DNA of 64,000 nt from a virus (IMGVR_UViG_3300009514_000374:64001-128000), one strand, 5' to 3'. Counted from the first letter of the stretch, positions 10,700 to 51,997 are shown. Notes: generated by a model not told the origin, from the letters alone. Made by a program: numbers and translations.

Positions 10700-11446
10700 A
10701 TGAGCCTACGCAACGATTTGATCCGACTCGCCCACGTTGACCCCGAGATCCGTGAGGCCGTCATGCCCATGCTCAGCAAGCAGGCTTTCGACACCGACCA
10801 GGAGCGGCTGCTCGACGCGATCGTTCTAGCTGCGGAGAACGAGGGCCGGTTCTACGACAAACGCGATGCCAAGGGGGCGGTGGACGCCGCGTGGAAAACC
10901 CATCGCAAGGCGACCATCGAAGATTTCGACCACGATTTCAACGCGATCAAAAAAGAGGCCATCAAACAGGTCCGTAAATCGTGGGGGCGTAAGCCCAAGA
11001 AGGCCACTCTCCATTCCAAGCTCGTCCGCCTTGCCCACGCGCAGCCCGAGCTACGCGACGTTCTGATGCCACTGCTCGTTGCGCCGACTCTCACGTTCGG
11101 CAAGGCTGCGGCGGAGCAACGGCCACGCCCCTACGCGGACGAGGATTCGGTGGTTGAGCGGTTGCACGCGGAGCTTTACAAGCTCGCAGAGCAACATCGC
11201 CTTGGTAACGGCCGAGCCCCGGATGGCACGGGAGCCCTGGAGTACCAGATCCGGTTCCTGCGAGCGTCTTCGCACCGTTCGCTTCCCTGGATCTACGACC
11301 ACATTATCCACACGGCCAACTCTGCGATGGCGCAGTCCCCTGTGTTGGAGCCGGTCGCCAAAAAGGTGATCAAAGAAGCCGAAGCTCGGGCGAAGGAATG
11401 GGCCGAGCGCGACCTCGCCCGCCGAACAAAGCGGACGCACGCATAG
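10700..11446 (+). CDS. putative internal head protein with two tag-A copies
   Basis: LRNDLIRLAHVDPEIR..KQA and LHSKLVRLAHAQPELR..KAA. Confidence 0.7.
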   Translation: MSLRNDLIRLAHVDPEIREAVMPMLSKQAFDTDQERLLDAIVLAAENEGRFYDKRDAKGAVDAAWKTHRKATIEDFDHDFNAIKKEAIKQVRKSWGRKPKKATLHSKLVRLAHAQPELRDVLMPLLVAPTLTFGKAAAEQRPRPYADEDSVVERLHAELYKLAEQHRLGNGRAPDGTGALEYQIRFLRASSHRSLPWIYDHIIHTANSAMAQSPVLEPVAKKVIKEAEARAKEWAERDLARRTKRTHA

Positions 11447-11455
11447 AGGTAACAG

Positions 11456-13108
11456 ATGGCGCAACCACCATACCAAGTAGACGCCCTAGAGATCGTTGGC
11501 GATAGCGGCCTCGGGTCGCGCCTGATCGAGTCGGGTGCGACGGATGGGACGTTGCGTTTCACCGATACCAAGGTCACCTCCCTTGCGCTGTACGAGCTTA
11601 CCGGGCTCCAGCAAATTGGCGGCGTCATTGTTCTCGGCAAGAGCGGTTCGGGTCGAACCAAGGACGTGGAAGGTAACGAGATCGACACCTTCCAAAAGGC
11701 GTTCGATGCTGTCCCCACGTCGGCAAGCGCAACGAGCCCTTGGGTCGTGCTTGCGATGTCTGGCGTCTACACCGAGGACGTGTTGCTGGAGAAGGATGGC
11801 GTCGAGGTCTTGGGCTTCGGCAACGTCGTCCTGACCAACGCTACGCCGGGTGCCCATACGCTCACGATCGTGGAAGGCCCCTTCTCGGTCCCCAAGCGGG
11901 TTCGTTTCCGTGGGGTTCGCATCGAGAACACGAGCGCTACCGAGGCGTGTGTGCGTCTCACGTCGGCCCTGTTCGCTACAGGCACGGTGACGGTTGCCAC
12001 GGTCCCGTTCGTCGGAGACACGTTCACCGTCTCGGCTACGACGCTCACGGCGGTTGCCAACGGGACGACCCCGGTGGTCGGCGAGTTTGAGCTTGGGACG
12101 GACACGGCCTCTACGGCTGTGAACCTGGCGGCTGCACTCAACGACCCGTTGAATGGCCTGACGACGACCATTCAGGCGTTCGTAGTGGGCAGCGTCGTGA
12201 CGCTCAAGGCGTTCACGCCGGGGCTTGTGGGGAACGCGATTACCATAGCGACCTCTGTGCCCATCGTTCTCGTCCTGTCGGGAGCTTCCCTGGCGGGTGG
12301 GCTCGATTCGGCAGCGGGCTCGACCCTGGCCGATGATCGGATCGATTTCGACGGTTGCGACCTCGTGGCGTCTGGCGTGACCGGGTTCCAGATGATCGCT
12401 GAGTCGGTCAACAACATCTCCATCGTCGGTGGGAATTCAGCCGGGTCAAGTTCCGGCTCGGCCATTCGGGTCCGTGAGTGTGCGAGCTTTGAGGCCAAGG
12501 ATGTCGAGAACCTGGAGATCCTTGACCTGCGGTACGACACCGTGGGCGGAGGGCCGATCCCGAGCGTTGCCACGTCGAGCTACGTGCTGGACGAGCTTTC
12601 GGCCGGCGGCACCCTGACCGGCGCTTTCGACGGTGGCGTGGGCAGCCTGACCATCACAGGGGGCACCTATGCGGGCACCTTGACCTGTACGACTACGGGC
12701 GGAGAGGCTCTTGTAACGACGGGAGGCGCGAGCTTTGGGGCTGTGACCCTGGCGGGCTCCGGCCCCGCGAGCCTCAACCACGTCGCCTGTCCTGGCGTGC
12801 TGACGGTTGGAGGCACGGTTGCTGCCGTGTCGAGGAATTCGGCATGGGGTAGCTTTTTGGGCGCCGGGACGCTCGACATCGACGTGTTTCAGATGTCCGT
12901 GCCGTTTGTGGCCGTCGCTTCGGTGCCTGTTGTGTTCCCGGTGGCACAGCCCGACACGGCCTATCACGTCTACCTCGATTCTGGCCTTGGGGCAGCCGCA
13001 GCTATCACCGATGTGCCGGGAACGTCAGCACGGACGACAGCCGGCTTCTCGCTTGATTTCGGTGCGGCCCAAACAACGACGGTGGGCGTCACCGTGCGGA
13101 GGATCTAA
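11456..13108 (+). CDS. virion fibre/appendage protein with a beta-helix-like segment
   Basis: Gly/Thr/Val-rich; TFQKAFDA...GVYTE pectin-lyase-like start. Confidence 0.65.
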   Translation: MAQPPYQVDALEIVGDSGLGSRLIESGATDGTLRFTDTKVTSLALYELTGLQQIGGVIVLGKSGSGRTKDVEGNEIDTFQKAFDAVPTSASATSPWVVLAMSGVYTEDVLLEKDGVEVLGFGNVVLTNATPGAHTLTIVEGPFSVPKRVRFRGVRIENTSATEACVRLTSALFATGTVTVATVPFVGDTFTVSATTLTAVANGTTPVVGEFELGTDTASTAVNLAAALNDPLNGLTTTIQAFVVGSVVTLKAFTPGLVGNAITIATSVPIVLVLSGASLAGGLDSAAGSTLADDRIDFDGCDLVASGVTGFQMIAESVNNISIVGGNSAGSSSGSAIRVRECASFEAKDVENLEILDLRYDTVGGGPIPSVATSSYVLDELSAGGTLTGAFDGGVGSLTITGGTYAGTLTCTTTGGEALVTTGGASFGAVTLAGSGPASLNHVACPGVLTVGGTVAAVSRNSAWGSFLGAGTLDIDVFQMSVPFVAVASVPVVFPVAQPDTAYHVYLDSGLGAAAAITDVPGTSARTTAGFSLDFGAAQTTTVGVTVRRI

Positions 13109-13683
13109 TGAGCGGACAAGACGATTTCTGGAGCGACCTGAGCCTGAGCCCCTTCACGGGGCCAACCTCGATGGATCACCATCTGTCGGAGGATACGATC
13201 GGTGGCCCTAAGTTCTCCTCGCTGCAAGACCTGACCGACCGAGGACGGGATGCGAATGGGCTGGACCTTGGGGTTCCCGCTGGCACGCGCGTTGTGGCCG
13301 TCACGAACATCGGTTCGGTCCTGACACACCCCGATCTCCCCGAGCCTGACGTGGAGGGCACGGTCGTCACGGTGCGCACGGCTCAGGGCGACCTGACCAG
13401 TCTCAACGACGAGGTTTTCGTCAAGTGGGACGACGGTAAGCTCCGCGCCATCCACAGACATTTCCTGCGTCGTGCAAAGACGAGTCGCAAGCGCGCGTCG
13501 GCGTTTTGCGTTCGCGCCAGCGGCATCGGAGACATCAGCCAGTTTTTCACTCGTGCGAACGATGGGAAGGCGAACGACCTCGTTCACAAGAGCACGAAAG
13601 ACCTGTGGAGCTTTGAGCAGAGCGACGACGGGATCGTGATTTCTCGTCTGTTCGATGACACCGGGGAACCCTTGAAAGGCTAG
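13108..13683 (+). CDS. hypothetical head-module protein
   Basis: Translationally coupled ORF. Confidence 0.65.
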   Translation: MSGQDDFWSDLSLSPFTGPTSMDHHLSEDTIGGPKFSSLQDLTDRGRDANGLDLGVPAGTRVVAVTNIGSVLTHPDLPEPDVEGTVVTVRTAQGDLTSLNDEVFVKWDDGKLRAIHRHFLRRAKTSRKRASAFCVRASGIGDISQFFTRANDGKANDLVHKSTKDLWSFEQSDDGIVISRLFDDTGEPLKG

Positions 13684-13685
13684 CC

Positions 13686-16897: not shown

Positions 16898-17227
16898 GTG
16901 TCTCTACGCAAGAAACTGATTCGACTCGCTCACCAGAAACCTGAGCTTCGCCCTCACTTGCTGCCGCTGCTCAAGACGGCGATGTACGGCAAGGCGTGGA
17001 TCACGAATTTCAACCGGGCCACGAACATGCTGTGGGTCGGCGTGCAGGGCTACGACGGCATGGTTCGGATGTCGATCAGTGGATCGGGCATGGTCACGTC
17101 GCATGGGCGCCATCCCTCACAGGTGTCTCACAAAGCGCACCAGATCGTTTCCAAGTTTCGGAATGAAGGATTCCCTCGCATTCCACCGCACGGCCACTGG
17201 CCGCCCGAGGTGAAGCCGGACAAATGA
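16898..17227 (+). CDS. small tag-A protein
   Basis: MSLRKKLIRLAHQKPELRPHLLPLLKTA. Confidence 0.75.
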   Translation: MSLRKKLIRLAHQKPELRPHLLPLLKTAMYGKAWITNFNRATNMLWVGVQGYDGMVRMSISGSGMVTSHGRHPSQVSHKAHQIVSKFRNEGFPRIPPHGHWPPEVKPDK

Positions 17228-18519
17228 CCAAGCAGGCATATTGGGAAGGGGTAGACCCCCTTCCCGGCGGCAACATGGACGAGGGCGACATCCACACTTG
17301 TCGGTCCCTGCTTGTCGATGTGCTCGCGTGCCTACGTGCTCAGTCGTGGAACTACCAGACGGCTCACTGGCAGACGGCCGGTGTGCCTGCCTACGGCAAC
17401 CACCTGCTCTTTGAGCGCCTCTACAAATCGGTTCAAGACGAGATCGATACGCTTGCGGAGAAGCTCGTTGGCTACTTTGGCCTCCATGCTGTTGACCCAT
17501 GCGACGTGATGGACAGGGCTCACAAGCTCGTCAAGCAGTGGAAGGCGTATTCGACCTGCCATGTCGAGCGTGGGCTCCACGCCGAGGAACATTTCCAATC
17601 GGGCGTGTCCAATGCGTACCACCAGATCAAGCAGAAGGGGCGCATGACCCTCGGGCTTGACGATTTTCTGATGGCGGCTGCGAACAACCACGAGTCGCAC
17701 ACGTACCTGCTCCAGCAGCTTCTCGTGGACATAAACAAGCTCAACGACGCCTACAAGGAGATGGGCGAGGCTCCGTACAAGGACATGACTCCGCCGTACA
17801 AGACGGCCACGCTGGAGGACGGCGTGGACTGGAGTGCGTGGAAGGGCCTCGATGGCAAGTGGAACATCGAGGGCGATGTGACCGCCGCTGAGTTGGAGCG
17901 CGTTGAGGGATTGATCAAGGCCGACCTTTCCGAAAAGTGCGGCACGCCGCACGGCGGGTGGGGTGGTGAGATGTCCTCGATGGAAAAATCGTGGGGAGGC
18001 TTCTCGTCCTTTCGTCCGGTGCGCCGTGGAGAGCGCGAGGATCAGATCCCTGGCGGTCTTGGCGACAAGGCCAAGACGGACGATTTTGATATTGAGCAAG
18101 TGCTGAAAGGAGTCGATGTCGAGCTTGAGCACACGACCGACCCTGACATCGCCCTGGAGATCGCACTTGATCATCTCACCGAGCACGACGACTACTACAC
18201 GCGACTGGAGAAGGTAGAGAAGCACGCGGCCATTGGTGACCGTGCTGCACCCTCTGTCGAATACTTGTTCCGCGACGATCCCAAGCGCTACGAGTTGACG
18301 GAATTCGTCAAATCGAAAGCCGTGACCAACCTCGACAATGACCCGGCGACACCGCCAACGCCCGTAGAGATCAAGGACGAGCCCGGAGGTAAGGCTCTCT
18401 CTACTTTGCATCGGTACGTGGTCGATACCGAGGAACCCGCTGCTAAGGATGCAGAGGGCATCGAGGAACACCCACCCCTGTCCGATTTCAAGGACTGGAC
18501 GACCGTGAGAGAGAAATAA
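17224..18519 (+). CDS. Dps/ferritin-like domain fused to a DUF5661-like domain
   Basis: AHWQ.....GNHLLFERLY.....IDTLAEK (Dps ferroxidase pattern); KGVDVELEHT.D..IA.EIALDHL.E..DYYTRL. Confidence 0.75.
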   Translation: MTKQAYWEGVDPLPGGNMDEGDIHTCRSLLVDVLACLRAQSWNYQTAHWQTAGVPAYGNHLLFERLYKSVQDEIDTLAEKLVGYFGLHAVDPCDVMDRAHKLVKQWKAYSTCHVERGLHAEEHFQSGVSNAYHQIKQKGRMTLGLDDFLMAAANNHESHTYLLQQLLVDINKLNDAYKEMGEAPYKDMTPPYKTATLEDGVDWSAWKGLDGKWNIEGDVTAAELERVEGLIKADLSEKCGTPHGGWGGEMSSMEKSWGGFSSFRPVRRGEREDQIPGGLGDKAKTDDFDIEQVLKGVDVELEHTTDPDIALEIALDHLTEHDDYYTRLEKVEKHAAIGDRAAPSVEYLFRDDPKRYELTEFVKSKAVTNLDNDPATPPTPVEIKDEPGGKALSTLHRYVVDTEEPAAKDAEGIEEHPPLSDFKDWTTVREK

Positions 18520-19098: not shown

Positions 19099-19647
19099 AT
19101 GCTTCCGCCGTGGGTTCGACCTCCCGATGCTTCTTGGACGGAGAAGCAGGTAGCCAAGGCGATCCTTCGGCATCTCAGTCCCGATCTGCTGCACAAGGAT
19201 TGGGGGCCAGGCGGCAAGCACTACAAGCCAGGGCGGCACGAGCATTTCGGGTACTGCAACGTCGCCAGTCAAGCCTTCTACTGGCTGATGGGTGCCCGCG
19301 AGGCGGGCTACAAGGCCATGCGGGTGAAGCACGAGGGAGGCACCCATTGGTGGATCCAGTCTCCCAAAGGCAAGGTCTGGGATCTGACCAAAGAGCAATT
19401 CACGACCCCTGTGCCTTACGCCCAAGGGCGTGCGGCGGGGTTCCCCGGCCGAGGGTATTTCCCGACCCTCGCTGCCAAGAAACTGATTGAGAAGGCTCGG
19501 GCCGACCTGGAGAGACGAGGCAAAAAAGCTATGAAAGACCTACGCAAGAACCTGATCCGCCTCGCGCATTCCAAGCCCGAGCTTCGCGCTGATCTGCTTC
19601 CGTTGATCACGGCTGCCGACCCGACCAAATCAAAGATGGTGCGCTGA
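19099..19647 (+). CDS. hypothetical protein (transglutaminase-like Cys/His/Asp pattern) with a C-terminal tag A
   Basis: GYCNVASQA..THWW..WDLT; KKA-MKDLRKNLIRLAHSKPELRADLLPLITAA. Confidence 0.65.
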   Translation: MLPPWVRPPDASWTEKQVAKAILRHLSPDLLHKDWGPGGKHYKPGRHEHFGYCNVASQAFYWLMGAREAGYKAMRVKHEGGTHWWIQSPKGKVWDLTKEQFTTPVPYAQGRAAGFPGRGYFPTLAAKKLIEKARADLERRGKKAMKDLRKNLIRLAHSKPELRADLLPLITAADPTKSKMVR

Positions 19648-20343: not shown

Positions 20344-22380
20344 ATGGGCCTTGGGCTTGGGAACATTGTCCTCGATGAAGGGCGCGATGCTGACAGCACC
20401 GCCGAAATCGCGGACATTATCACCTTCATCGAATCGGATTGGGGACTCGGCCAAACGCTGTTCCCGGTTCAGAAGGTGATCCTCAAGGCCCACTACGGCA
20501 TCCCTTTGGACGACGTGCCCGAGGGTATGGACGAGGGGCAGCTTGAGCTACTGGAGCACCACAAGTTGCTCAAGCTCGCGCAGGTCGAGAACCCTCTCAT
20601 TGACCCTACGGCCAACGAGAAATACCTGATCCGCTACATCCTGCGGAAACACATCCACGTCACGGATTTCCGCAAGCATCCCATCCCTGACGTGGCCGAG
20701 TGGATGTCCGAAGCCGAGTACCTTCGCCATCTGTACGCGGAAGGTCGGTCGAACATCGCCGAGGTAATCGAGGGGCAGGAGCGCCGGGAGATGATCCTGA
20801 GCGTTGGCCGTCGCTCGGGTAAGACGACCATCTCAGCCTGCATCGCTGCCTACGAGACATACAAGCTGCTCTCCAAGGGCAACCCACAGCAGTTCTATGG
20901 TCTGCCGGATGGCAACACGATCCAGTTGATCTCGGTCGCTACGGACAAGGACCAGGCGGGTCTGCTCTACCGCGACGTTGCCAAGTATTTCGCGCAGTGT
21001 GAATTCTTCCGCACCTATCAAGCCAACGCCACGCAGTCCTTTGCTCGTTTCCAGACGCCCTCGGACATCGAGCGTCACGGCCGGTACGCGGACAATCCTA
21101 ACGCTTCGGCCGCCTCGATCAACGTCACCTTCCGGTCTTGTATCGCTAAGGGACTCCGTGGTGCTGGTAACATCGTGATCATTCTTGACGAGGTTGCCCA
21201 CTTTACGGACGGCGGGCAGTCCTCGGCCGACGAGGTGTACCAAGCGGTCAAGCCCTCGCTGGCTGCCTTCACTGAAAAGAACCCCTACAACAAGGCCGAG
21301 CCCATCGGACCCGTCGAAGGACGGATGATCCTGATCTCGTCGCCGCTTGGCCGTCAGGGCAAATTCTACGAGCAGTTCCAGATCGCCATGAGAGGCGGCA
21401 AGGCGTCGCAGACGATGCTCGCCATCGAGGCACCAACGTGGGAGGTCAACCCGACCATCCCGGCTGAGTTCTTTGAGTCGGAGTACGTGAAGGACACCAA
21501 CATGTTCTTTACGGAGTACGGCGGCAAGTTCTCCGACCGTACTCTCGGCTGGATCGAGGACGCCCGCGACCTGCTCAACTGCGTGGACCCCAACCTCAAG
21601 CCTCGGACCCGTGGCCTTCCCCGTGCGCCCTATTTCATCGGGCTCGACGTTGGCCTCGTGAACGACGGCACGGCGGTTGCCATCGGCCACATTGAGCAGG
21701 AGAAGATCGTTCTCGACTACATCGATCAGATCAAGGCGGGCGAGGGCGAGTACGCCAACTACGAGCGCCTGGAATTTGAGGACGTGTCAAAATGGATCCA
21801 CGACCTCTCGCGGAAATTCCTGATCGATGAAGGCATGTTCGACCAGTGGGCGGGTATTCCGTTGGAGCAGGCGTTGCTCAAGAAGGGCCTGAAACAGATC
21901 AAGGCCACGCACTTTACTCAGGTGCTCAACAGCCAGGTCTTTCGGAATTTCAAGGACATGCTGTTCGACAGCCGCCTCGTTCTGTACGACTACACGGACG
22001 AGCAACGCGAGAAGCTGCGTGACAAAGAGGGCAAGGCACCGGACCACATGCCCTACTTGACCGAGCTATTGACGCTCCAGGCTGACTACCGGAGCAAGTA
22101 CGTCGTGAACGTGTCCGCGCCGAACATCGCCGGGGCACACGACGACCTTTCCGACGCGCTTGTACGCATGGTTTGGCTCGCCAGCCAAAAGCTCTCCAAC
22201 CGGGCGTACATCGCTGGACGGGGCCGACAGACCGGGCCGAACCGGCATCGGATCTCGGCGGGCAAGCAGCGGAAACAGATCCTCGCCTCCAAGAAGGGGG
22301 GCAGCATGGAGCAGCGGCAGCTACGTCGTGTAGGCCGGCAAGGTTTCATGCCTGTTCGTGGTGGAAGGCTCAAGGGGTGA
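20344..22380 (+). CDS. terL: terminase large subunit
   Basis: Walker A GRRSGKTT, Walker B IILDE, ISSP coupling motif, RNase H-fold GLDVG and HDDLSDA. Confidence 0.93.
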   Translation: MGLGLGNIVLDEGRDADSTAEIADIITFIESDWGLGQTLFPVQKVILKAHYGIPLDDVPEGMDEGQLELLEHHKLLKLAQVENPLIDPTANEKYLIRYILRKHIHVTDFRKHPIPDVAEWMSEAEYLRHLYAEGRSNIAEVIEGQERREMILSVGRRSGKTTISACIAAYETYKLLSKGNPQQFYGLPDGNTIQLISVATDKDQAGLLYRDVAKYFAQCEFFRTYQANATQSFARFQTPSDIERHGRYADNPNASAASINVTFRSCIAKGLRGAGNIVIILDEVAHFTDGGQSSADEVYQAVKPSLAAFTEKNPYNKAEPIGPVEGRMILISSPLGRQGKFYEQFQIAMRGGKASQTMLAIEAPTWEVNPTIPAEFFESEYVKDTNMFFTEYGGKFSDRTLGWIEDARDLLNCVDPNLKPRTRGLPRAPYFIGLDVGLVNDGTAVAIGHIEQEKIVLDYIDQIKAGEGEYANYERLEFEDVSKWIHDLSRKFLIDEGMFDQWAGIPLEQALLKKGLKQIKATHFTQVLNSQVFRNFKDMLFDSRLVLYDYTDEQREKLRDKEGKAPDHMPYLTELLTLQADYRSKYVVNVSAPNIAGAHDDLSDALVRMVWLASQKLSNRAYIAGRGRQTGPNRHRISAGKQRKQILASKKGGSMEQRQLRRVGRQGFMPVRGGRLKG

Positions 22381-22642: not shown

Positions 22643-22987
22643 ATGCCGAAAGGACCGCAGACCGAGGAACGTGCTGAGCGTCAGGCGAGGGACCAGGAGA
22701 TCCGTCTTGCCGCGCAGGCACGGGAAAACATCGAGATGCACAAAGCGGCTGACGCGCATCTCGACGTGGCTGCGGCGGCGCTACGCAACGCCCTAAGATC
22801 GCTCCAGAACGTCCGTGTGGCGCGTCGTACTGCGGAAGGCCAGGTGCTCAAACGCAAGCTCAGGGCCGTTGAGCAGGCTGCTGCGGCTCTCAAGCCCATC
22901 GGAAGGGATGCTGGCCGGGTTCGGGCGACCGGGCCGGACTATTCCGACCCCGATTTGTCTATGGGAGGGCCAGGGGTGAATGGCTAA
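22643..22987 (+). CDS. hypothetical basic helical protein
   Basis: ORF overlapping the portal start. Confidence 0.6.
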   Translation: MPKGPQTEERAERQARDQEIRLAAQARENIEMHKAADAHLDVAAAALRNALRSLQNVRVARRTAEGQVLKRKLRAVEQAAAALKPIGRDAGRVRATGPDYSDPDLSMGGPGVNG

Positions 22988-24980
22988 GAAACGCCAAAAG
23001 CGGCGTCGAAAGACCGCTCCACGGCGCTATATCGCCGGATCGGGGGACATCCCCAAGAACGAGGACGCCCAAACGGTTGCCAGCGTGCCGGACAAGCATA
23101 AGCGGCCTCAGTTGTCGGTTGGCAAGCCGCAGCCGATCGTCCTTGGGTCGATGCGATCCAAGGTGGCGAATATCGGCGCAGGCGGATCGGGTTTCGGGGG
23201 CGGTGGGATCGGAGGACCCGGATCGGGTAACACGGGTGCTTTCGGATCCGGGCTTGGTTCGGTTGGCGGCTCGGCGATCGGAAGCGGCGGGAATTTCTAC
23301 TCGCCCGAGCTTTCGACCGATTTCCTTGAGCTACCGCAGAGCCTAGACGAGCAGCGTAACTACTTTCGGTTTTTCTACCGCGCTGACCCGTTCGTCGGGC
23401 AGGCGATGGACATTCACCGCGAGCTTCCGCTGTCGAAGATCCGGCTTGGTCGCCCCGAGGCCAAGGACAAGGATCTTGCTCAGCAGTCGCTCGATTTCTG
23501 CAAGCGGTGGACGAAGATCGTTGGGCTGCTCCAACGGCTGTCGGAAGGGCTGCACGAGTACAACGTCATTGGCGAAACGCACTGGTTCATCGAGGACGAC
23601 AACCCCGATATGCCGGAGGACGTTCGATACGAGATCAAGAACATTCTCCACGAGGATGGCAACTTGGAGGAGACCAAGGAGCTTTGGCCGGACGCGGACG
23701 AGCGCGCCTCCGCGTGGATGAAAAAGAACTACAAGGGGTGGACGCAGGTTCGCATCCTTCCGCCTGAGCAGATTCACATGGACTCGTTCCCGATGTCGGA
23801 CGAGATCCTGGTATCGCTCATTCCCGACTCCAAGACTAAGAGTGTGATCGAGCAGGCCGACCAGGGTGACCAGCGTGCGGTCAAGGTCATGGAGTCGATG
23901 CCGCCTGACATCGTGATGGCGGTGCGGCACGGCGAGAACGTCCCGCTCAATACGGACCCAGACGCAGGGTCGTTCTACTACTACATGGCGAACAAGGTGA
24001 GCCAGTACGAGCCGCGAGGGCACTCTCGGCTTGAACGGTGTATCCGTACCCTCGTCTACAAGGACAAGCTGCGCCAGGCGCAGACCTCCATCTCGTCGCG
24101 GCACATGACGCCTATCCGGCTCGTGTACGCCGAGAACATGAACGAAGCGGACACCGAGGCGCTGCGTGATCAGATCGACCTCGCGCTCCAAGACCCCGAC
24201 TACTCGATCGTCACCAACTTTCAGGTGACGTGGGAGGAAATGACGCCGCAAGGGCGTCTGCTGGAGCTTTCGTCCGAGTACGACCTGATCAACCGGGAGC
24301 TTTATGCGGGTCTTGGAGTGACAGAGAGCCTGCTCTCAGGTGAGTCGAGCTACAGCGGCGATCGGATCAACCTGGAGGTGATCAACGTCCGCTACATGCT
24401 CGTCCGTGAGTTCCTACAGGATTTCGTGGAGAAGAACCTGTTTGAGCCGATGTGTCGGCGCATGGGGTTCATCGAGACGGACGATTGGGGCAACGATGTC
24501 GTCGTTTGCCCGAAGCTCTCGTTCACGAGGCTGGCCCTCCGCGACAACCAGGACGTGTACGACGCCCTGTTCAACCTCTACCAGAAGGGCTCGTTGCCGA
24601 TTAGCGTGATCTACGACCTGCTCAACGTGGATGGGGAGGGTGCGACCGAGGAATTGCAACGCGATTTCGCCACGTTCAAGGACCCCACCTACAACGAGGT
24701 ACTGCGTGGCCTGTACTCGCAGGCGGGGACCAAGCTCGGCGACCAGTCGAATTTCGTGGAGAAGCAGGCCGAATACCTCGGACTGGACTACAAAGAGGAA
24801 GCCGAGGGGATGCAGCGGTTCGGATCGCAACAGGCGCCCTCGCAGCCCCAAGGTCAGCCCGCCGGGATGGACGTGTTGGCTTCTCTCGTGGCTGAGCGGA
24901 TCGCCGGCCAGGTCGCCGATTTGGTCGCCGACAAGATCGTGGAAAAGCTACAAAAGCGGTCTCCTGAGAGCACCGAGTAG
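22980..24980 (+). CDS. portal protein
   Basis: Follows TerL; FFYRADPFVGQAMD.H, YNVIGE, RGHSRLER, GLGV.ESLLSG portal-like pattern. Confidence 0.85.
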   Translation: MAKKRQKRRRKTAPRRYIAGSGDIPKNEDAQTVASVPDKHKRPQLSVGKPQPIVLGSMRSKVANIGAGGSGFGGGGIGGPGSGNTGAFGSGLGSVGGSAIGSGGNFYSPELSTDFLELPQSLDEQRNYFRFFYRADPFVGQAMDIHRELPLSKIRLGRPEAKDKDLAQQSLDFCKRWTKIVGLLQRLSEGLHEYNVIGETHWFIEDDNPDMPEDVRYEIKNILHEDGNLEETKELWPDADERASAWMKKNYKGWTQVRILPPEQIHMDSFPMSDEILVSLIPDSKTKSVIEQADQGDQRAVKVMESMPPDIVMAVRHGENVPLNTDPDAGSFYYYMANKVSQYEPRGHSRLERCIRTLVYKDKLRQAQTSISSRHMTPIRLVYAENMNEADTEALRDQIDLALQDPDYSIVTNFQVTWEEMTPQGRLLELSSEYDLINRELYAGLGVTESLLSGESSYSGDRINLEVINVRYMLVREFLQDFVEKNLFEPMCRRMGFIETDDWGNDVVVCPKLSFTRLALRDNQDVYDALFNLYQKGSLPISVIYDLLNVDGEGATEELQRDFATFKDPTYNEVLRGLYSQAGTKLGDQSNFVEKQAEYLGLDYKEEAEGMQRFGSQQAPSQPQGQPAGMDVLASLVAERIAGQVADLVADKIVEKLQKRSPESTE

Positions 24981-24996: not shown

Positions 24997-25022
24997 TATT
25001 CGGGCTATGGGCGTGCCTCTAG
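24997..25022 (+). promoter_or_regulatory. late-type promoter motif
   Basis: TAT TCGGG CTAT GGGCGTGCCTC TAG; implies a start at ATG 25031. Confidence 0.5.
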
Positions 25023-25030
25023 CGAAGGCT

Positions 25031-34500: not shown

Positions 34501-35955
34501 ATGGCTTTCCTACGCTACGCGCGGGCCAAGGTCGTCAAGCCCCACTGCTCTGGACAGCGGTGGCGCAGGGTCCGTACTGCCTCGACGGCAGCGCCCTCGG
34601 CCAACCTGATCACTCAGGCCAACGAAATTCTCGGCTCGGAATTCGACCCGAGCAAGTATCTCCTGACCCACGCGACGATCGTGTGCTCGGTGGATACGTC
34701 AGAGGTTCCAGGGGTCAAGACCGGCTCTGTTATGGATCCCATGACGGGCAAGCGGGTCAACCGCAAGTGGGCCAACTACCGCGTTGCTCCCGAGTGCGAC
34801 CAGTTCATCAACAACAACAACGACTGTTGGGACCGGGGCGTGCTGCTCAAGAGCTATCGCACGTTCGTCGGCGCCCACAACTTTGTTGAGCACGTTCAGA
34901 TCGAGGAACAGTCCAAGGGCCGGATCATCGACGCGGTAGCCCGCGACATCGGCCCCTCGGTCTACACGGACATCCTGATTGCCACCAGCCGTGACCACAC
35001 CCAACTGGTCAAGGACATCGAGGCAGGCAAGATGGCTACCCTCTCGATGGGTTGCTCGGTCACTGAGACGATCTGCACGAAATGCGGAAACGTCGCGGCC
35101 GATGAAACCGAGATGTGTAACCACATCAAATACGAGAAGGGGAACTACTTTTTCGATGACCGGGGCGGCAAGCACCGGATTGCCGAGCTTTGCGGCCATC
35201 CGAGCATCGACCCCAACGGAGGCGTGACTTTCATCGAGGCGTCGTGGGTCGCTACCCCGGCGTTTGGCGGTGCGGTCATGCGGAACATCCTCACGCCGAG
35301 CCAGGCCGTCGCCGACAAGGCAGCCAAGGTTCTCGCTTCGCCTCCGCCTGAGTGGCAGGACGGTGGAATCGACAAGGCTGCGCGCATCGTTCAGGTGCCC
35401 GCTGTCGTGGCCGAGGGTGAATTCGATTTCGGGGACGAGGGCGAAGGCGAAGGCGACGAGGGCGGTGGCGAAATGCCAGACGCTCCGGCGCAAGAGGCTC
35501 CCGCAGCCCCCGAAAAGAAGGACCAACTCCAACAGCTTGAGGACGAGATGTACTCGGAGATGGCTAAGCGAGTGAAGGATCGCATGAAGCGTGATCTCGC
35601 CGGTCCTGAACCCTCCCTGGGAGAGCCTTCACACTCAACTGGTGAGGACGTGATCAAGCAAGGGCGCAAGAAGCAAGCGTATGCCTCTTTCGTCAACAAC
35701 TTGGTCCGTACCGCAGATTCCGATGCAGCCCTGATCGATGGGCTGGCTCGGGCTAATCAGCAAATGGGAATTCAAATCGTCCGCGACCTGTACGTGGCGT
35801 CTCTCAATGTAGGCGCCACGTCCGAGTACGCTTCTTTGGTCGAGTACGTTGGCGCTTGTCGCAAAGCGCTCGGCCGCAAACCAACTCACGGAGAGGCTAC
35901 ACAAATGGTGCGTCTTGGGAAGCTCCTCTCCAAGTGGAAACAGCAACCCAAGTAG
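34501..35955 (+). CDS. prohead maturation protease
   Basis: NFVEH..GRIIDA, LSMGC, FIEASWV..PAF (assemblin/HK97-like); lies before scaffold and MCP. Confidence 0.75.
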   Translation: MAFLRYARAKVVKPHCSGQRWRRVRTASTAAPSANLITQANEILGSEFDPSKYLLTHATIVCSVDTSEVPGVKTGSVMDPMTGKRVNRKWANYRVAPECDQFINNNNDCWDRGVLLKSYRTFVGAHNFVEHVQIEEQSKGRIIDAVARDIGPSVYTDILIATSRDHTQLVKDIEAGKMATLSMGCSVTETICTKCGNVAADETEMCNHIKYEKGNYFFDDRGGKHRIAELCGHPSIDPNGGVTFIEASWVATPAFGGAVMRNILTPSQAVADKAAKVLASPPPEWQDGGIDKAARIVQVPAVVAEGEFDFGDEGEGEGDEGGGEMPDAPAQEAPAAPEKKDQLQQLEDEMYSEMAKRVKDRMKRDLAGPEPSLGEPSHSTGEDVIKQGRKKQAYASFVNNLVRTADSDAALIDGLARANQQMGIQIVRDLYVASLNVGATSEYASLVEYVGACRKALGRKPTHGEATQMVRLGKLLSKWKQQPK

Positions 35956-35976: not shown

Positions 35977-37269
35977 ATGGCACGTCAACGCCTTACTCAG
36001 CAAAGCAAGAACGCTTCTCCGCCCCCGCAGATGCCTGCGAACGATCGGACGGAGAAATCAGAACACCCCGCCGCGCAGCCCGATCCGGGCAAGGACGACT
36101 ACAAGACCGGCGACCCCTCCACTTGGGCCGAGGACGTTCACCCTGGCCCCTACGACACGAGCCCCGCTCCGGCGACTCCAGGCTACGACGAGGCTGCGGA
36201 TCATCCCGCCGCCAAGCCGGGCAAGCCCATGAAGGCGTCGGACGAGGAAGCGTATCGCAGGGCGACCGAGAAAAAGGCCGCCAAGTGCATCCGTATCGCT
36301 CAGGCTCTCATGCCCGAGGCTGCGGTGTCTGCGATCGAGGATCAAGCCCTCGATTTCATGGACCTCCCCGACAGCCAGATCCACAACACCCTCGATCGCC
36401 TTGGCCTTACGGCTGCTGACGACGAGGACGAGGATGACGACGAGGACGAGGGCAACGGCAAAGAAGCCAGCCACGCTCTCACCGCTCGCCTCGACAAGAT
36501 GGAGAGGATGCTGACTCGGATCATGGAAGCCGGGAACCTCTTTGCCGAGAACGGCATGGACATGGATCCCATGGACGACATGATGGGCATGGACGAGGGC
36601 ATGGACGAGGACGCCATGCTTGAGGAAATGCTGGCCGACGACCATGCCGGCCGCCCTCCGAATGACGCTCAGTACGGATACGGAGTTGTCGGCGAGGACG
36701 ACGACCCCGAGGTCGAGGAAATGCTCGCCGAGATGATGGGCGGCCACTACGCTGGCGAGATGCCCGAGGGCCTCAAGAAGCATCTTGAGGAAAAGGAAAA
36801 GGGCAAGTCGGACGACGACTCGGACGACGACTCGGACGACGACAACGGCAAAGAAGCAAAGGCCGCTGACGACGACGAGAACGGCGACGAGGACGAGGGT
36901 GACGACGAGGAGGGCAAGGAAGCCTCGATCCAGATGCTCTCCGACGAGCAAGACCCGATGGGCCTGATGGACCAAACCCCGGCCGGCGACGACGACCTGA
37001 GCGTCCTGTACGAAAAGTTCGCGGGTGACGACGAGGACGACGAGGACGAGGACGAGGACGACGACGACGATGGAGACGAGGACGAGGACGAGGCCGAGGC
37101 CAGCAAGAAGGCCAAGACCAAGACCGCCTCGCTCCGTCCGCAGCCCAAGAAGCCCTCCAAGGGACCAAAGAAGCTCGGGCAGGTAAGCAAGACGGCATCT
37201 TCGGAGGTCGCTGAGCTTGCTTCCCTCTGGAAGACTGACCCGGACGTTTCGTCCGTGTTCAACGGGTAG
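35977..37269 (+). CDS. acidic scaffolding protein
   Basis: Poly-D/E tracts, repeated KEA/KTA sites, position between protease and capsid genes. Confidence 0.65.
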   Translation: MARQRLTQQSKNASPPPQMPANDRTEKSEHPAAQPDPGKDDYKTGDPSTWAEDVHPGPYDTSPAPATPGYDEAADHPAAKPGKPMKASDEEAYRRATEKKAAKCIRIAQALMPEAAVSAIEDQALDFMDLPDSQIHNTLDRLGLTAADDEDEDDDEDEGNGKEASHALTARLDKMERMLTRIMEAGNLFAENGMDMDPMDDMMGMDEGMDEDAMLEEMLADDHAGRPPNDAQYGYGVVGEDDDPEVEEMLAEMMGGHYAGEMPEGLKKHLEEKEKGKSDDDSDDDSDDDNGKEAKAADDDENGDEDEGDDEEGKEASIQMLSDEQDPMGLMDQTPAGDDDLSVLYEKFAGDDEDDEDEDEDDDDDGDEDEDEAEASKKAKTKTASLRPQPKKPSKGPKKLGQVSKTASSEVAELASLWKTDPDVSSVFNG

Positions 37270-38137: not shown

Positions 38138-39010
38138 ATGACCGTATCTAACGCTACCAAGCAAAAGATCATCTCGGACTACATCAAGACTCCGACTGGT
38201 CGCGCCAAGCTGGCTGCCTCGATGACGCAGCCTCTCCGCACCCGACGTGACTACACGTCTGTTGGGCGCCGTACCTTCCTTGTCGAGCAGTTGCCAGATG
38301 GCGCGCTCCCGATCTACGACAAGGATCCCGATGTCACGGCCTACGTCGTCGGCGAGGAAGGCGAGAACATTCTCGCCATCACCAAGCCACGTCGCGTGAT
38401 CTTCCCGCTGTTTGAGATTGCCTCCAACCCGGAGATCCCTCTCACTCAGATCAAGGAGCGCAGGTTCGATCTGATCGAGCGCGCGCAAGACCTTGCTCGG
38501 GCTCAGATCCAGGCCGCCGAGGACGAGCGTGTGTTCGCTATCCTCGACGCCATCGCAACTGTCGGTTTCGATTCGCTTCCGGGCGGACTCAACCCCGACA
38601 TTCCGGTTGTCGCTCCCATCTCGGGTGCGGTGCTGGCTGACGCCTTCTCGCTCATTGAGCGCCACGACCTCCGGGTCGCGCGCGTCTACATGAACGCGAG
38701 GGACTACGCCGACATCCGCAAGTTCGGTCGGGACATTCTCGACATCGAGAGCCAGGCGACGCTGCTCAAGACTGGTCTGCAAGCTACCCTCTGGGGTGCC
38801 CAGATCATCACGAGCCGCCTCGTTCCGGTCGGCACGGTGTACGTCTGCTGCGAGCCCGAGATGTTTGGCCGCATCCCGGTTCGTACGGAATTGACCGTCT
38901 TGAGCGCGGACGACCCCCGCGCCCGTACCATCGGTTTCTCGGTTTTCGAGAACCTCGGCATCGGCGCCTACAACCCGCGCGGCCTGACGCGTCTGACCAT
39001 CACCCGCTAG
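38138..39010 (+). CDS. major capsid protein (HK97 fold)
   Basis: AGGAG RBS; FEIASNPEIPL..IKERRFDLIERAQ..IQAAED, YMN..DYADI, LWGAQIITS. Confidence 0.9.
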   Translation: MTVSNATKQKIISDYIKTPTGRAKLAASMTQPLRTRRDYTSVGRRTFLVEQLPDGALPIYDKDPDVTAYVVGEEGENILAITKPRRVIFPLFEIASNPEIPLTQIKERRFDLIERAQDLARAQIQAAEDERVFAILDAIATVGFDSLPGGLNPDIPVVAPISGAVLADAFSLIERHDLRVARVYMNARDYADIRKFGRDILDIESQATLLKTGLQATLWGAQIITSRLVPVGTVYVCCEPEMFGRIPVRTELTVLSADDPRARTIGFSVFENLGIGAYNPRGLTRLTITR

Positions 39011-39118: not shown

Positions 39119-41611
39119 ATGTCGGAACCGAGTGGCGAAACCGAAGCGAACAAGCCCTATGCCCTTCACGGGAAGCTGACGGTCGAGAAGCTGCGTGAGA
39201 TGTACGAGGTCGAGCTACTGACCGACCAAGAGATTGCCGACCACTACGGGGTTTCAGATGCCGCTGTGAGCGGCCGGAGGAAACGGGCAGGCATCGCTAC
39301 CATGTCGGCTCGGCAACGCCGTGAGCGGAAAGCAGGGCGCTCGGGACCGTTCCTAGACGACCTGACTCCGACCGAGCTTGCGGACCTCTATAGCCGCATG
39401 GGTGATCGGCAGATCGCCGCGACGTACGGGGTCAAGAAACCTGCGATCTCCAGGCTCCGAGACAAGTGGGGGATCGGAGCTATCTCCAAAGCCGAGCGTG
39501 CGACCTCCAGGGAGCCTCTGACTGACGAGCAAAAGGAGATCGTGATCGGGGTGATGCTTGGGGACGGGCACTTGCTTTCGCGTGGAGTGTTCAAGGTCAG
39601 TCATTCGCAGCACCAGTACGAATACCTGTGCCACGTCCACGCGGCGCTGTCCTCCATCGCCAAGCCACTCTACTACGACGAGAAGGAGATGGCCGAGTCG
39701 GGAGAGCTTTGCCCTGGCTTCGGGTTTCGCACGGTTCAACATTCCTGGCTCAAGGCGATGCGTCGCCTGTTCTATCCCGAGGGCGAGCGGGTGTTTCCGG
39801 CCTCGGTGCTGGATAACCTGACGGAGCGTTCGCTGGCCTACTGGTACTTTGACGACGGCTACGAGAGCGATGGGTTGCCTCGGTTCGCCCTCGGCAAAAT
39901 CTCACGTTCCGCAGCCGAGGATGTCGTACAGCGAATCGGGAGGCGCTTTGGGTTCAAGACCTACGTGGGGTCGCCGGTTCCGAATTGCCAGATCATGTCG
40001 ATGCGGGCTGTGTCGTCTGAGCGGTTTTTTCGGATAGTCGTGGATTTCGCGTCGCCGGATATGCTCTACAAGGTCCCTGAGCGGTTCTGGCCTGCGCACG
40101 CTCGGCCTACAGTGAAGGTCAGGACGGTTGACCCGATCCAGCTTCCCAAGGAACTTCGGGGGACGGACCCGAGCTTGGAGGATGGCCTGTTGGCGTTTTG
40201 GCGGAAGCAGGGGTTCCCCTACCACGTTGCTCGGCCTGAGCACCTTCGTATCCTGGCGAATCTGGAGGCGAACCAAGTGCTCCAGGGGGACTCGCTGAAA
40301 ATTCGGCATGTTGGGCAGTCGTCGTGCCAGGCTTTCATGCCGCACATTTGGGAGGCGCATAGCTTTGCGACACCGAGTCCCAAGGCACTGTTCGACAACG
40401 ACGACCGGCTGCGGGAGGTGATCCGGCGAGGGCTCGCTGCGGGCATCGTGTTCAGCGCGGCAGGAATGCGTCAGGCTTTGAGGCGCTACCGTCTTACGAG
40501 CGTCTACAATTTCCGCCCGGCCGTTGCGAAGGTCTTGGTCGATCGGTTCTGTCCGAGTGGGGGGACGGTTTTCGACCCGTGTGCGGGTTGGGGTGGCCGC
40601 ATGTTGGGCACGTTGTTGTCGAGGGCGAACGCTCGTTACGTCTGCTGCGAGCCTAGCTCCAAGACGGTACGGGGTCTGCACGAAATGAAGATGTGGGTCG
40701 AGGGGCATGTAGTCGGTGCTGCGGATCGGGTGACGATCAACCCCGTCCCTGCGGAAACCTTCGACCCTCCCGAGGCGGATATGGTGTTGACCTCGCCGCC
40801 GTATTGGAAGCGGGAGGTTTACGCGGACGAGGACACACAGTCGTCGGCTCGCTACTCGACCTACGAGGCATGGGTCGATTCGTTCCTGCGGCCCATGATC
40901 GCTCGGAGCATCGCTGCCTTGAAATCGGGGGGCTGGCTCGTCCTGAACGTGGACGATTTTGCGATCGGGGAGACTAAGTACCGCTTGGTTCAGGACGTGA
41001 AGGACATCGTAGCGGAGCACGGGCTCCGCGACCCTGACGAGTTTCGGTATGAGATGCCGTCCTTCACTACCGAGGACAACTACGAGCCGGTGCTGGCTTG
41101 GCCGAAAGGGTTGGGCGTCGAGACTGCTCATTCGGATCCGGTTGCAGTTGCGGTCGGACAGCCTGAGCAGAAGGTCACGGCTCGGACGCCGCTGGCGAAG
41201 ATCTGTATTCAGTGCCGGAGGCGGTTTGAGACTCTGCGCGCGGACACGAAATACTGCTCGGATGCGTGCGGCTCTCAGTACCGGAAGCAGAAGCGCGGCG
41301 GGAAGCCACGAAAGACTCACCGGACCATCCAGTGCAAGGCGTGCGAGAATTCGTTTGCGATTCCGTTGACCGGGGGAGTGCCCAAGCACTGTCCCTCGTG
41401 TGCGATCGACATCGCGGAGAATCGTGAGCTTGCGGCACGGACCAAGGCGTGTGCGTACCGCCACTGTGGGCGCAAATTCTTGGATACCTCGACCAAGAAC
41501 ATCGCCAAGTTCTGCCACGTCGAGCATCGACGGCGGGAGAAGCTGTTTCGGTCGGGAAGGGCGGCAGACCTGTCGCATTTCCGCAACCCGGACCCGGTGC
41601 TCGATCGGTAG
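39119..41611 (+). CDS. fusion of tandem HTH, LAGLIDADG endonuclease, amino-DNA methyltransferase and Zn fingers
   Basis: IVIGVMLGDG, LAYWYFDDG; FDPCAGWGG (motif I), TSPPY (motif IV); multiple CxxC. Confidence 0.85.
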   Translation: MSEPSGETEANKPYALHGKLTVEKLREMYEVELLTDQEIADHYGVSDAAVSGRRKRAGIATMSARQRRERKAGRSGPFLDDLTPTELADLYSRMGDRQIAATYGVKKPAISRLRDKWGIGAISKAERATSREPLTDEQKEIVIGVMLGDGHLLSRGVFKVSHSQHQYEYLCHVHAALSSIAKPLYYDEKEMAESGELCPGFGFRTVQHSWLKAMRRLFYPEGERVFPASVLDNLTERSLAYWYFDDGYESDGLPRFALGKISRSAAEDVVQRIGRRFGFKTYVGSPVPNCQIMSMRAVSSERFFRIVVDFASPDMLYKVPERFWPAHARPTVKVRTVDPIQLPKELRGTDPSLEDGLLAFWRKQGFPYHVARPEHLRILANLEANQVLQGDSLKIRHVGQSSCQAFMPHIWEAHSFATPSPKALFDNDDRLREVIRRGLAAGIVFSAAGMRQALRRYRLTSVYNFRPAVAKVLVDRFCPSGGTVFDPCAGWGGRMLGTLLSRANARYVCCEPSSKTVRGLHEMKMWVEGHVVGAADRVTINPVPAETFDPPEADMVLTSPPYWKREVYADEDTQSSARYSTYEAWVDSFLRPMIARSIAALKSGGWLVLNVDDFAIGETKYRLVQDVKDIVAEHGLRDPDEFRYEMPSFTTEDNYEPVLAWPKGLGVETAHSDPVAVAVGQPEQKVTARTPLAKICIQCRRRFETLRADTKYCSDACGSQYRKQKRGGKPRKTHRTIQCKACENSFAIPLTGGVPKHCPSCAIDIAENRELAARTKACAYRHCGRKFLDTSTKNIAKFCHVEHRRREKLFRSGRAADLSHFRNPDPVLDR

Positions 41612-49947: not shown

Positions 49948-50030
49948 CCCAACTCGTGCTGATTGCACCACAACTTGTTTTGCGAGGACGGGCGCCGCCG
50001 TAGCCGATTTCCTAACTGGAAATCGCAGCT

Positions 50031-50342: not shown

Positions 50343-50346
50343 CCCG

Positions 50347-50616
50347 CTAGGTGTCTTTCATCTGGCCCTGCGAGTAGAGGTCGTGGTCGCGTTCGATGAA
50401 GGCCACGGTCTCTGGATCGCAAAACCAGTGGAAGGCCAGCATCTCACGCTCGGCGTGTTCGATGACCTTCGCTCGTGGGTAGCCCTGCGAGCGGAGGTCG
50501 GCGTGTTCACGTTTCAATTGATCCGCAACCTCGGGTGGGAGATCCGCAAATGCGTTCTCTTCCTCCCACTCAAAGTGGCATTTCAGACAGCACGATGGTT
50601 TCGCAGAGGCCATCAC
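50347..50616 (-). CDS. hemerythrin-like small protein
   Basis: HFEWEE...EH..L...HAEREM...DH. Confidence 0.55.
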   Translation of the reverse strand: MMASAKPSCCLKCHFEWEEENAFADLPPEVADQLKREHADLRSQGYPRAKVIEHAEREMLAFHWFCDPETVAFIERDHDLYSQGQMKDT

Positions 50617-50649
50617 TCAATCCGACCTATAGACGGGGTAAGGTGACTC

Positions 50650-50883
50650 GTGGACCGACGTAAGCGAATGATCTCTCGCAGGAATGCCAAACAGCGGAAG
50701 GCCGAGGCCGGAGAACCGCTTTCCCGCAACGGGTATTGGGGCGCGGGCAAGACCGAACCGGGCAACAACAGCCCGAAGCCGGGCTCCAAGCTGATTTTCA
50801 AGCCGGGTACGGCCGCCATCGCGGGTGTTTGGGAGCCGGGGTCGGACGGTGACCCTCCGGCCACCCCACACGAACAGCCGTAG
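50650..50883 (+). CDS. hypothetical protein
   Basis: ORF with a leaderless-type motif. Confidence 0.5.
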   Translation: MDRRKRMISRRNAKQRKAEAGEPLSRNGYWGAGKTEPGNNSPKPGSKLIFKPGTAAIAGVWEPGSDGDPPATPHEQP

Positions 50884-50918
50884 ATCAGGCTATACGGGTC
50901 CACTGGTAGTGGACCCGT
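50881..50918 (+). promoter_or_regulatory. late-type motif with an 11-bp hairpin covering the start codon
   Basis: TAG ATCAGG CTAT; ACGGGTCCACT-GGT-AGTGGACCCGT. Confidence 0.6.
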
Positions 50919-51580
50919 CCGCGAAAACGGTTGCTGCGCGCCACATGCGGCGCACCGCTGCGCGTGAGATCGAAGCCTCGATCAACAAGGCGATCGTCCC
51001 GCTCACGGCGCATTGGAAGCCTGCGGGTGCGCCCGTGACGAACGAGGACAAGGCCCGAGCCCGTCTCTCCGACGCCGAGATGGCGGAGTGGCTGGAGGAA
51101 ATGCGGCCCGAAGCACGGATCGGACACATCCGAGGTGTGTTTGGGATCGAAATGGGCCGCCATCGCCAGTGGCTTGCGCTGGAGATCCCCATTGTCGTTG
51201 GGGACGATGGGAAGGTCGTCACCTACGGTCCCATGTTCGGTGAGCACGATGTTCGGTTCATCCGAGGCAGCGAGAAGCCATTTCGGACGGAGCCACAGCT
51301 AGCCGAGGCGATCGTGTATCTCCTGGCCGGTCAGGGCTCCCTGGATGGCCCCCTGACCGTCAGAGCCAAGGCGACGGTGTGGGAGAGCCTGATGGGTGCG
51401 CTCAAGGTGAGCGTCGGTGAGGGTTTCTGGAAAGTGAAGCCGGGCCATGGCTACGCGGCTCAGGACATTCGCCCCAAGGCTTCCCCGTTCGTGGAGCGGA
51501 TGGTCGGCCATCTCACGGCTGAGTGGGCTCGGGAAACCGGCTACTCACCCATGCTTTCGCCTGCATGGCAAAGCGCCTGA
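50909..51580 (+). CDS. tag-B protein
   Basis: MDPSAKTVAARHMRRTA. Confidence 0.65.
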   Translation: MDPSAKTVAARHMRRTAAREIEASINKAIVPLTAHWKPAGAPVTNEDKARARLSDAEMAEWLEEMRPEARIGHIRGVFGIEMGRHRQWLALEIPIVVGDDGKVVTYGPMFGEHDVRFIRGSEKPFRTEPQLAEAIVYLLAGQGSLDGPLTVRAKATVWESLMGALKVSVGEGFWKVKPGHGYAAQDIRPKASPFVERMVGHLTAEWARETGYSPMLSPAWQSA

Positions 51581-51588
51581 TGCGCCGC

Positions 51589-51616
51589 TAGTTTCTCTAT
51601 GCCCAGACCCCGATAG
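51589..51616 (+). promoter_or_regulatory. late-type promoter motif
   Basis: TAG TTTCT CTAT GCCCAGACCCCGA TAG. Confidence 0.6.
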
Positions 51617-51625
51617 GAGCCGCCG

Positions 51626-51997
51626 ATGTCCCTACGCAAGAAGCTGATCCGACTCGCCTACGAGAAGCCCGAGCTTCGATCCGATCTGATTCCGCTGATC
51701 AAGGTCGCTGCTCGTGTCGGCGACTCCACTTGGCGATCGATGCTCAAGGATCTGGAACGAGGCAAGCCGGGCAACTGGAGCTTCGACGGCCGTGGGCTTC
51801 GGGAGTTGGAGAACTGGATCGTGGAGCAAGGTGGCAAGGCAATTTCGCCTTCGTCACGTTTCTCCGAAGGCGACCAGATCAACTACACCCTGAACGGGAT
51901 CAGCCTTGAGGGTACCTCGGGAAATTTCATGGGTCCGTTCACGCAGGTTCAGGCGCAGCGCGGCATGTGGCGCGGCACTCCGTATCTCGGTGATTAA
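51626..51997 (+). CDS. small tag-A protein
   Basis: MSLRKKLIRLAYEKPELRSDLIPLIKVA. Confidence 0.75.
   Translation: MSLRKKLIRLAYEKPELRSDLIPLIKVAARVGDSTWRSMLKDLERGKPGNWSFDGRGLRELENWIVEQGGKAISPSSRFSEGDQINYTLNGISLEGTSGNFMGPFTQVQAQRGMWRGTPYLGD

Follow-up and report, generated by a model that had tools for sequence, protein, structure and literature searches.

Tag A, a portable peptide module on unrelated proteins of uncultured megaphages related to phage G

We analysed a 64,000-nucleotide stretch of viral DNA (the window), which comprises bases 64001–128000 of the 141,007-bp IMG/VR virus record IMGVR_UViG_3300009514_000374 (GC 0.607; about 30% complete by estimate). Several otherwise unrelated proteins encoded there share a short peptide, which we refer to as tag A. 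It is an undescribed, clade-specific and portable peptide module, and its scale is far larger than was first noted in an initial annotation of the window. The best available reading, which is based on analogy and circumstantial evidence and falls a little short of an even chance, is that tag A loads its carriers into the prohead and that a K-x-A junction at its border is cleaved.

Copies, conservation and distribution of tag A

The initial annotation had listed five copies of the peptide. Scanning of all six frames of the window with the motif L[RHK]xxL[IV]RLA[HYFW]xxP[EA][LIV]R gave exactly five matches, all on the plus strand and all inside long open reading frames (ORFs) with coding-type GC3. 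In the register of a hidden Markov model (HMM) they start at 10700, 11003, 16898, 19534 and 51626; two starts previously given as ~11009 and 19531 were thus only a few bases off. The assigned places within the ORFs (N-terminus, middle or C-terminus) are correct, as are the K-x-A triplets quoted for the copies (KQA, KKA and KAA, KTA, KKA, KVA). The four carriers are indeed unrelated: with the tags masked, the best BLASTP match among them had an E-value of 3. Copies and carriers are as follows.

10700..10786, plus strand: tag A copy 1, at the N-terminus of ORF 10700–11446, K-Q-A after the tag
11003..11089, plus strand: tag A copy 2, internal in ORF 10700–11446, K-K-A before the tag and K-A-A 14 residues downstream
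16898..16984, plus strand: tag A copy 3, at the N-terminus (GTG start) of the 109-aa ORF 16898–17227, followed by K-T-A
19534..19620, plus strand: tag A copy 4, at the C-terminus of the 182-aa ORF 19099–19647, G-K-K-A before the tag
51626..51712, plus strand: tag A copy 5, at the N-terminus of the 123-aa ORF 51626–51997, followed by K-V-A
10700..11446, plus strand: carrier 1, 248 aa with two tags, passenger without assigned function
16898..17227, plus strand: carrier 2, 109 aa, passenger without assigned function
19099..19647, plus strand: carrier 3, 182 aa, weak YunG / phrog_12251 passenger
51626..51997, plus strand: carrier 4, 123 aa

Building an HMM of the peptide and scanning the complete genome and related phages had been suggested as a check. 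When the five-copy HMM was run against all six-frame segments of the 141-kb record, 15 copies were found, all on the plus strand, and many more turned up in related phages and metagenomes. The count of five therefore holds for the window but not for the record. Per-copy domain E-values of the window copies range from 7e-18 to 4e-16. Ten of the 15 copies lie 22–37 kb upstream of the window, eight of them in four adjacent ORFs at 26.5–31.9 kb and two in a 350-aa ORF at 41.5–42.6 kb.

Such repetition might also stem from a DNA-level element, or from chance low-complexity similarity that happens to be translated, and the repetition itself is all that speaks for this explanation. Codon analysis refutes it. 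Among the 15 copies of the record, identity is 0.55 for amino acids, 0.68 at codon positions 1–2 and 0.39 at position 3, and the same codon is used for identical residues in only 40% of cases. Third positions are scrambled while the peptide is kept, which excludes a DNA repeat or recent gene conversion; a DNA-level repeat was rejected on these grounds. Further, the copies span genomes with a GC of 0.40–0.67, and all those of the record lie in frame within long ORFs, with HMM E-values reaching 1e-18. Selection acts on tag A at the peptide level.

The consensus of tag A, xSLRSKLIRLAHxxPELRPHLLPLLK, is about 27 residues long, with near-invariant L3, R4, I8, R9, L10, A11, H/Y12, P15, L17, R18, L21, L22, P23, L24 and L25. 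An AlphaFold2 (AF2) model (mean pLDDT 83) predicts a helix at residues 3–13, a break before Pro15 and a second helix at residues 15–30. Arg4, Arg9 and Arg18 are conserved.

No known family accounts for the peptide. In nine carriers of this genome, Pfam gave no family over the tag at E ≤ 0.01, and the tag itself had no significant profile match to known helical repeat families (LRV, HEAT-like) in the same nine carriers at this threshold. An LRV match in one of 115 tagged proteins, which was not placed on the protein, is not general. No PHROG family covers tag A. The best PDB sequence match is a 12-residue ribosomal stretch with E = 0.72 and thus no real match, Foldseek with the tag model returned nothing at E ≤ 0.001, and no relative of the tag was found in the ESM Atlas. 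A full-text literature search for the motif letters gave spurious matches only.

In about 22 tagged proteins, a further module (approximately AMEHxSxEALKKYLKEHPNADPxNHTVKK) with a K/E/G-rich linker directly follows tag A. Examples are found at L009:4453–4540 and L009:16635–16720 (genome positions ~29.45 kb and 41.64 kb) and in P0014, P0030, P0109 and others.

To determine the distribution of tag A, a profile of 13 copies (A1) was searched against 1.84 billion representative proteins. It matched 3,689 protein clusters (50% identity) at E ≤ 1e-3, of which 427 reached E ≤ 1e-10. Many of the matched proteins have 2–5 copies, and all ten that were looked up come from metagenomes. In IMG/VR we found 71 tag-bearing loci with 133 tagged ORFs, on contigs of up to 485 kb and with a GC of 0.40–0.67. 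The uncultured 485-kb phage LR745208.1 has 11 tags. The tag A profile gave no match in phage G and Tunturiibacter phage Tunturi_5 at E ≤ 1. A strict degenerate DNA pattern had no match in 185,579 cellular species genomes; as this pattern catches only about one copy in five (three of the 15 in this record), the absence from cells holds per genome, not per copy. Tag A is thus restricted to one clade of uncultured megaphages related to phage G. An all-against-all blastp-short comparison in Tunturi_5 revealed no other widely shared short peptide, only a repeated motif of ADP-ribosyltransferase (ART)-type proteins.

Position in the carriers and exchange with a second peptide

The initial annotation had described the peptide as portable and independent of its position, and both properties are firmly borne out. 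In the 133 ORFs from viral loci, placement is about 75% N-terminal, 10% C-terminal and 15% internal. Homologous passengers may even be tagged at opposite ends: tag A occupies residues 2–30 of 288 in the protein from locus L042 and residues 245–271 of 271 in that from L032, while the passengers match each other with E = 2.6e-23.

Twelve tagged proteins have homologues which lack tag A. In six of the 12 a second peptide of about ten residues, RVAxR[YH] (tag B), is found in the tag-A-less homologue at the equivalent N-terminal, internal or C-terminal position. The ART-PolyVal orthologues illustrate this exchange. Three phages have tag A at the N-terminus, while a short second peptide is present in this genome and in one other. 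The orthologue of this record (genome 12148–12918, outside the window) begins with AQRVARRY, and that of L036 has SPIKVAFRHLL in place of tag A (orthologue coordinates L036:4951–5802 and L020:9131–9982). Locus L036 is on a 485,040-bp IMG/VR contig which appears to be the same phage as LR745208.1. Tag A and RVAxR[YH] thus appear functionally interchangeable, which argues for address or docking modules that do not belong to the passengers themselves. There is good support for tag A as a label that addresses or docks its carriers to a common partner.

Acidic, disordered linkers part the 2–5 copies found in many proteins, and in some there is hardly any other sequence. This would suit tags that associate with each other, so that acidic proteins with several tags would build, together with those that have one, a network or condensate such as an inner body or viral factory. 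We regard such self-association as improbable. In the AF2 model of a natural two-tag protein of 115 aa (pTM 0.26), each tag forms a confident helix pair with low-confidence linkers at its flanks and no tag–tag bundle is seen, although a single-sequence prediction is weak evidence. In addition, homotypic pairing is difficult to reconcile with a swap for the far shorter tag B at the same positions.

Passengers, head genes and tag borders

Most carriers are 100–400 aa long. Pfam families detected in tagged proteins are ART-PolyVal (three proteins, best E = 3.9e-12), RNA ligase, pentapeptide repeat, WGR, DUF2958 and DUF7717, and sigma-like proteins are also among the carriers. A 1,238-aa protein with three tags has a weak match to a ParB-like nuclease (ParBc_2, E = 1.5e-4), which is under the Pfam cut-off. 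Proteins for which packaging and injection together with phage DNA have been proposed characteristically contain ART and ParB-like DNase domains (PMC5512222). Effector domains typical of proteins co-delivered with DNA are thus represented, by ART-PolyVal in three tagged proteins. Neither MuF nor peptidase fusions occur among the Pfam families reported for 238 tagged proteins, and no passenger homologues were found among the head-region genes of phage G and Tunturi_5. By analogy, the passengers resemble injected effectors. In this genome tag A is absent from RNR, RecD2, RecA, PhoH, GGDEF-EAL, TerL, portal, major capsid protein (MCP), the topoisomerase IB fusion and the CCA enzyme; recognizable genes of nucleotide metabolism, repair, signalling, packaging and the shell thus carry no tag, a point in favour of cargo loading.

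Tunturi_5 has three proteins of 1,300–1,500 aa with a common repeated motif that was taken as ART-PolyVal (L093–L108). These ART-type proteins, encoded at genome positions 163409–167245, 225787–230271 and 261501–265589, look like classic polyvalent proteins. By contrast, the ART proteins of the tag-bearing clade are small and individually tagged.

The predominance of N-terminal copies and the potentially toxic enzymes among the passengers could also point to a regulatory leader, in the form of an inhibitory pro-peptide or of a degradation or chaperone signal (for example for a Clp-type machine), that controls how active or how long-lived toxic effectors are; phage G packages ClpP and ClpX (PMC12484599). 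Known degrons, however, differ from a peptide with 27 conserved residues that also occurs internally and in several copies, and the tag had no sequence-family or PDB match. A control signal of this kind is very improbable; it overlaps with cargo loading, as a cleaved targeting leader can also inhibit.

The head genes of the window, all downstream of carrier 3, are listed below. The end of carrier 3 is the start of the ORF immediately upstream of TerL.

20344..22380, plus strand: large terminase (TerL), start of the head module
22980..24980, plus strand: portal protein
34501..35955, plus strand: prohead maturation protease, candidate enzyme for the K-x-A junctions
35977..37269, plus strand: acidic scaffold-like protein, 430 aa, with three G-K-E-A sites
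38138..39010, plus strand: MCP, 290 aa, homologue of phage G gp27

In the PDB, MCP matches gp27 of phage G (6wkk) with E = 9.5e-62; it is 38% identical to that of phage G, 48% to that of Tunturi_5 and 92% to that of LR745208.1. Within the main tag-bearing clade, identities are 88–93% for MCP, ~60% for TerL, ~59% for the portal protein and ~45% for the protease. This constraint on MCP is unusually strong for a capsid protein (window 38138–39010; relatives L032, L034, L045, L048, L051 and L060). Its 88–93% identity across the main tag-bearing clade makes MCP a candidate receptor. The per-genome tag consensus is near-identical in 15 of 16 records compared, across genomes with a GC of 0.40–0.67, and tag identity is only slightly higher within a genome (0.678) than between genomes (0.637; P < 0.0005). 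In a lineage with a 78% identical MCP, the tag consensus is shifted to LIRLGNxxPELRxDLKPVIA. This pattern fits a very conserved receptor such as MCP, and is equally expected from phylogeny alone.

Tagged genes are found within the head region of several phages. In LR745208.1 a tagged gene lies between the scaffold and the decoration/MCP genes. Four small tagged genes flank protease, scaffold and MCP in the complete 437-kb genome G004, in which eight of 12 copies are at most 10 kb from the head block, and a conserved tagged 196-aa family is located 1–4 kb downstream of MCP in three loci. In seven related records together, 19 of 74 copies are within 10 kb of the TerL-to-MCP block versus 10.8 expected, an excess which comes from G004 alone. 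The initial annotation had placed all carriers in the head module or behind a late-type promoter motif. The first part is true locally but not genome-wide, where most copies are far from head genes. The promoter motif was not recovered: intergenic k-mer enrichment and visual check of 39 upstream regions revealed no shared motif. The most enriched intergenic 9-mers of the whole record are tRNA T-arm and D-arm signatures (GGTTCGATCC, TAGCTCAGT), indicating several tRNA genes.

Other ORFs of this region are unusual. A 1,293-aa ORF right after the portal gene (25007–28888) has a 2H-phosphoesterase-like domain and a CCA/poly(A)-type nucleotidyltransferase and is interrupted by an intein with a LAGLIDADG endonuclease. 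Within the head module, a 1,322-aa ORF (29967–33935) has an N-terminal eukaryotic-type topoisomerase IB catalytic core (E = 7e-23), and its homologues in related phages share this location. Next to MCP on its downstream side, an 830-aa ORF (39119–41611) contains LAGLIDADG endonuclease and DNA methylase domains. The 431-aa ORF adjoining the tagged 109-aa gene (17224–18519) has a weak ferritin/Dps-like N-terminal region and DUF5661 (E = 4e-10).

The K-x-A junction at the tag borders is statistically real. At the upstream border of 229 non-N-terminal copies, K is found at −2 in 39%, D, K or E at −1 in about 50% and A at +1 in 41%; at the downstream border, position 26 is K in 42% and position 28 is A in 37%. 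The junction motif K-[EKDQ]-A-[SAK] is enriched 6–25-fold over composition shuffles in all eight acidic scaffold orthologues, and also in Tunturi_5 gp332 (L088:9584–11170), with six occurrences versus 0.6 expected. In the 42,370-aa proteome of the record GK[EKQ]A occurs seven times, three times directly before tags, three times in the scaffold and once elsewhere. A junction motif common to tag borders and scaffold fits a putative shared protease site. In the acidic scaffold-like proteins (window 35977–37269 and Tunturi_5 gp332) acidic runs stand in front of the motif. As the HMM scan revealed, the scaffold of this phage does not itself carry tag A.

The main rival to prohead loading is that tag A docks its carriers to a shared partner outside the capsid and thereby gathers many phage proteins at one place in the infected cell, for instance at a compartment or replication factory built by the phage, at one of its chaperones or at a host complex such as RNA polymerase. 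Portability, swapping and conservation would suit any common partner, most copies are far from head genes and a sigma-like protein is among the carriers. We consider a non-capsid partner less likely, given the tagged genes within the protease–scaffold–MCP operon in several lineages, the injected-effector flavour of the passengers (PMC5512222) and the junction motif common to tags and scaffold.

Cargo loading as a possible role and its implications

If tag A is a loading signal, it would dock its carrier during prohead assembly onto one very conserved phage-encoded partner, the best candidates being the inner face of MCP or the acidic scaffold core. Dozens of unrelated proteins, for the most part effector-like, would in this way enter the head and leave it with the DNA. 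The prohead protease may cut the K-x-A sequences on either side of the tag and free the passengers, much as T4 does with its capsid targeting sequences (CTS). A more detailed version is possible, to which we give somewhat less credence than to loading and cleavage as such: a modular addressing system with at least two interchangeable codes (tag A and RVAxR[YH]), which would load dozens of separate effectors via a near-invariant capsid protein, with the prohead protease cutting K-x-A sites of the scaffold type to free the passengers.

The passenger types and the T4 precedent fit a cargo-loading tag. The CTS of T4, ten residues long, is sufficient to load foreign proteins into heads, and gp21 removes the propeptides of the T4 protein Alt, an ADP-ribosyltransferase that is packaged (PMC9026906). 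Like the CTS of IPI–III and Alt, tag A is a short peptide common to unrelated proteins, mostly N-terminal and followed by a short conserved junction, and it has an ADP-ribosyltransferase among its carriers. The two differ in that they share no sequence similarity, that tag A has 27 residues and two predicted helices versus about ten residues, and that the junction is K-x-A instead of L/I-x-E. Unlike the N-terminal T4 leader, 25% of tag A copies are internal or C-terminal; tag A is conserved also at C-termini and between domains, often in 2–5 copies. The protease is unrelated to that of T4 by sequence search. Loading followed by ejection of host-takeover proteins, as in T4, would be the common concept (PMC9026906).

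In giant phages such as phiKZ, 201phi2-1 and SPN3US, the propeptides of head and ejection proteins are removed by the prohead protease (PMC10052503, PMC5694885). The tag-bearing clade resembles this group in being large phages with probably many internal or ejected proteins and with putative protease motifs repeated in propeptides and scaffold-like proteins (PMC10052503, PMC5694885). The propeptides of the phiKZ group are different, however: they are 20–254 residues long, have no single conserved portable sequence and are cut after Glu. The capsid of the tag-bearing clade is of the phage G type, not the phiKZ type.

Two further modules are similar in principle. The C-terminal helix-turn-helix of P22-type scaffolds is a basic two-helix coat-binding module in procapsid assembly, which has been used to load foreign cargo into P22. 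Tag A is predicted as two helices with a break at Pro15 and conserved arginines; there is no detectable sequence or Foldseek match to the P22 module, and the true scaffold here lacks the tag. The cargo-loading peptide of encapsulins is short and terminal and directs unrelated cargo into an HK97-fold shell. Encapsulin peptides are uncleaved extended motifs of about ten residues, unlike tag A, and no sequence relation was found. Nor does tag A fall among them by family or PDB match or by gene order, as most tagged genes are far from the MCP gene and follow no shell-adjacent operon rule. Finally, polyvalent and MuF-fused effectors include the same kinds of passenger (ART-PolyVal, ParB-like nuclease), for which transport inside the head and injection have been proposed (PMC5512222). 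The effectors described here are mostly small separate proteins with a short tag, in contrast to domains of one giant MuF or peptidase fusion.

Several observations weigh against loading and cleavage. K-x-A lies inside the ends of the tag's own consensus and is absent from orthologues with tag B, so that it may be structural and not a protease site. Charged helices rich in K, E and A can yield K-E-A-K strings without any protease, tandem repeats in the scaffolds inflate the shuffle test, and the prohead protease has no PDB relative that would indicate the specificity of its family. Most passengers have no recognizable domain. Without G004, 11 copies are near the head block versus 9.9 expected, and proximity is significant in only one of the seven records. 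The tag-bearing phages are all uncultured, and their cultured relatives phage G and Tunturi_5 lack tag A. A scaffold helix with the sequence KCIRIAQ was rejected as a tag homologue (hhalign probability 0.7% over seven columns).

To our knowledge, T4 and the phiKZ group apart, little has been learned about how huge phages select, from hundreds of proteins, those that enter the particle. If tag A is a loading signal, the proteins that uncultured megaphages inject could be listed simply by scanning their sequences; here these would be ADP-ribosyltransferases, nuclease-like proteins, an RNA ligase and sigma-like proteins, among others. A short label which functions at either terminus as well as between domains would in addition be of practical use for capsid packaging. 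In evolutionary terms, individually tagged effectors would then be an alternative to the fusion of effectors into giant polyvalent proteins, as in relatives such as Tunturi_5. Even if its partner is not the capsid, tag A, with its 27 residues, is present on 3,689 protein clusters and yet has no Pfam entry, structure or paper, which constitutes a sizeable gap in the annotation of phage proteins.

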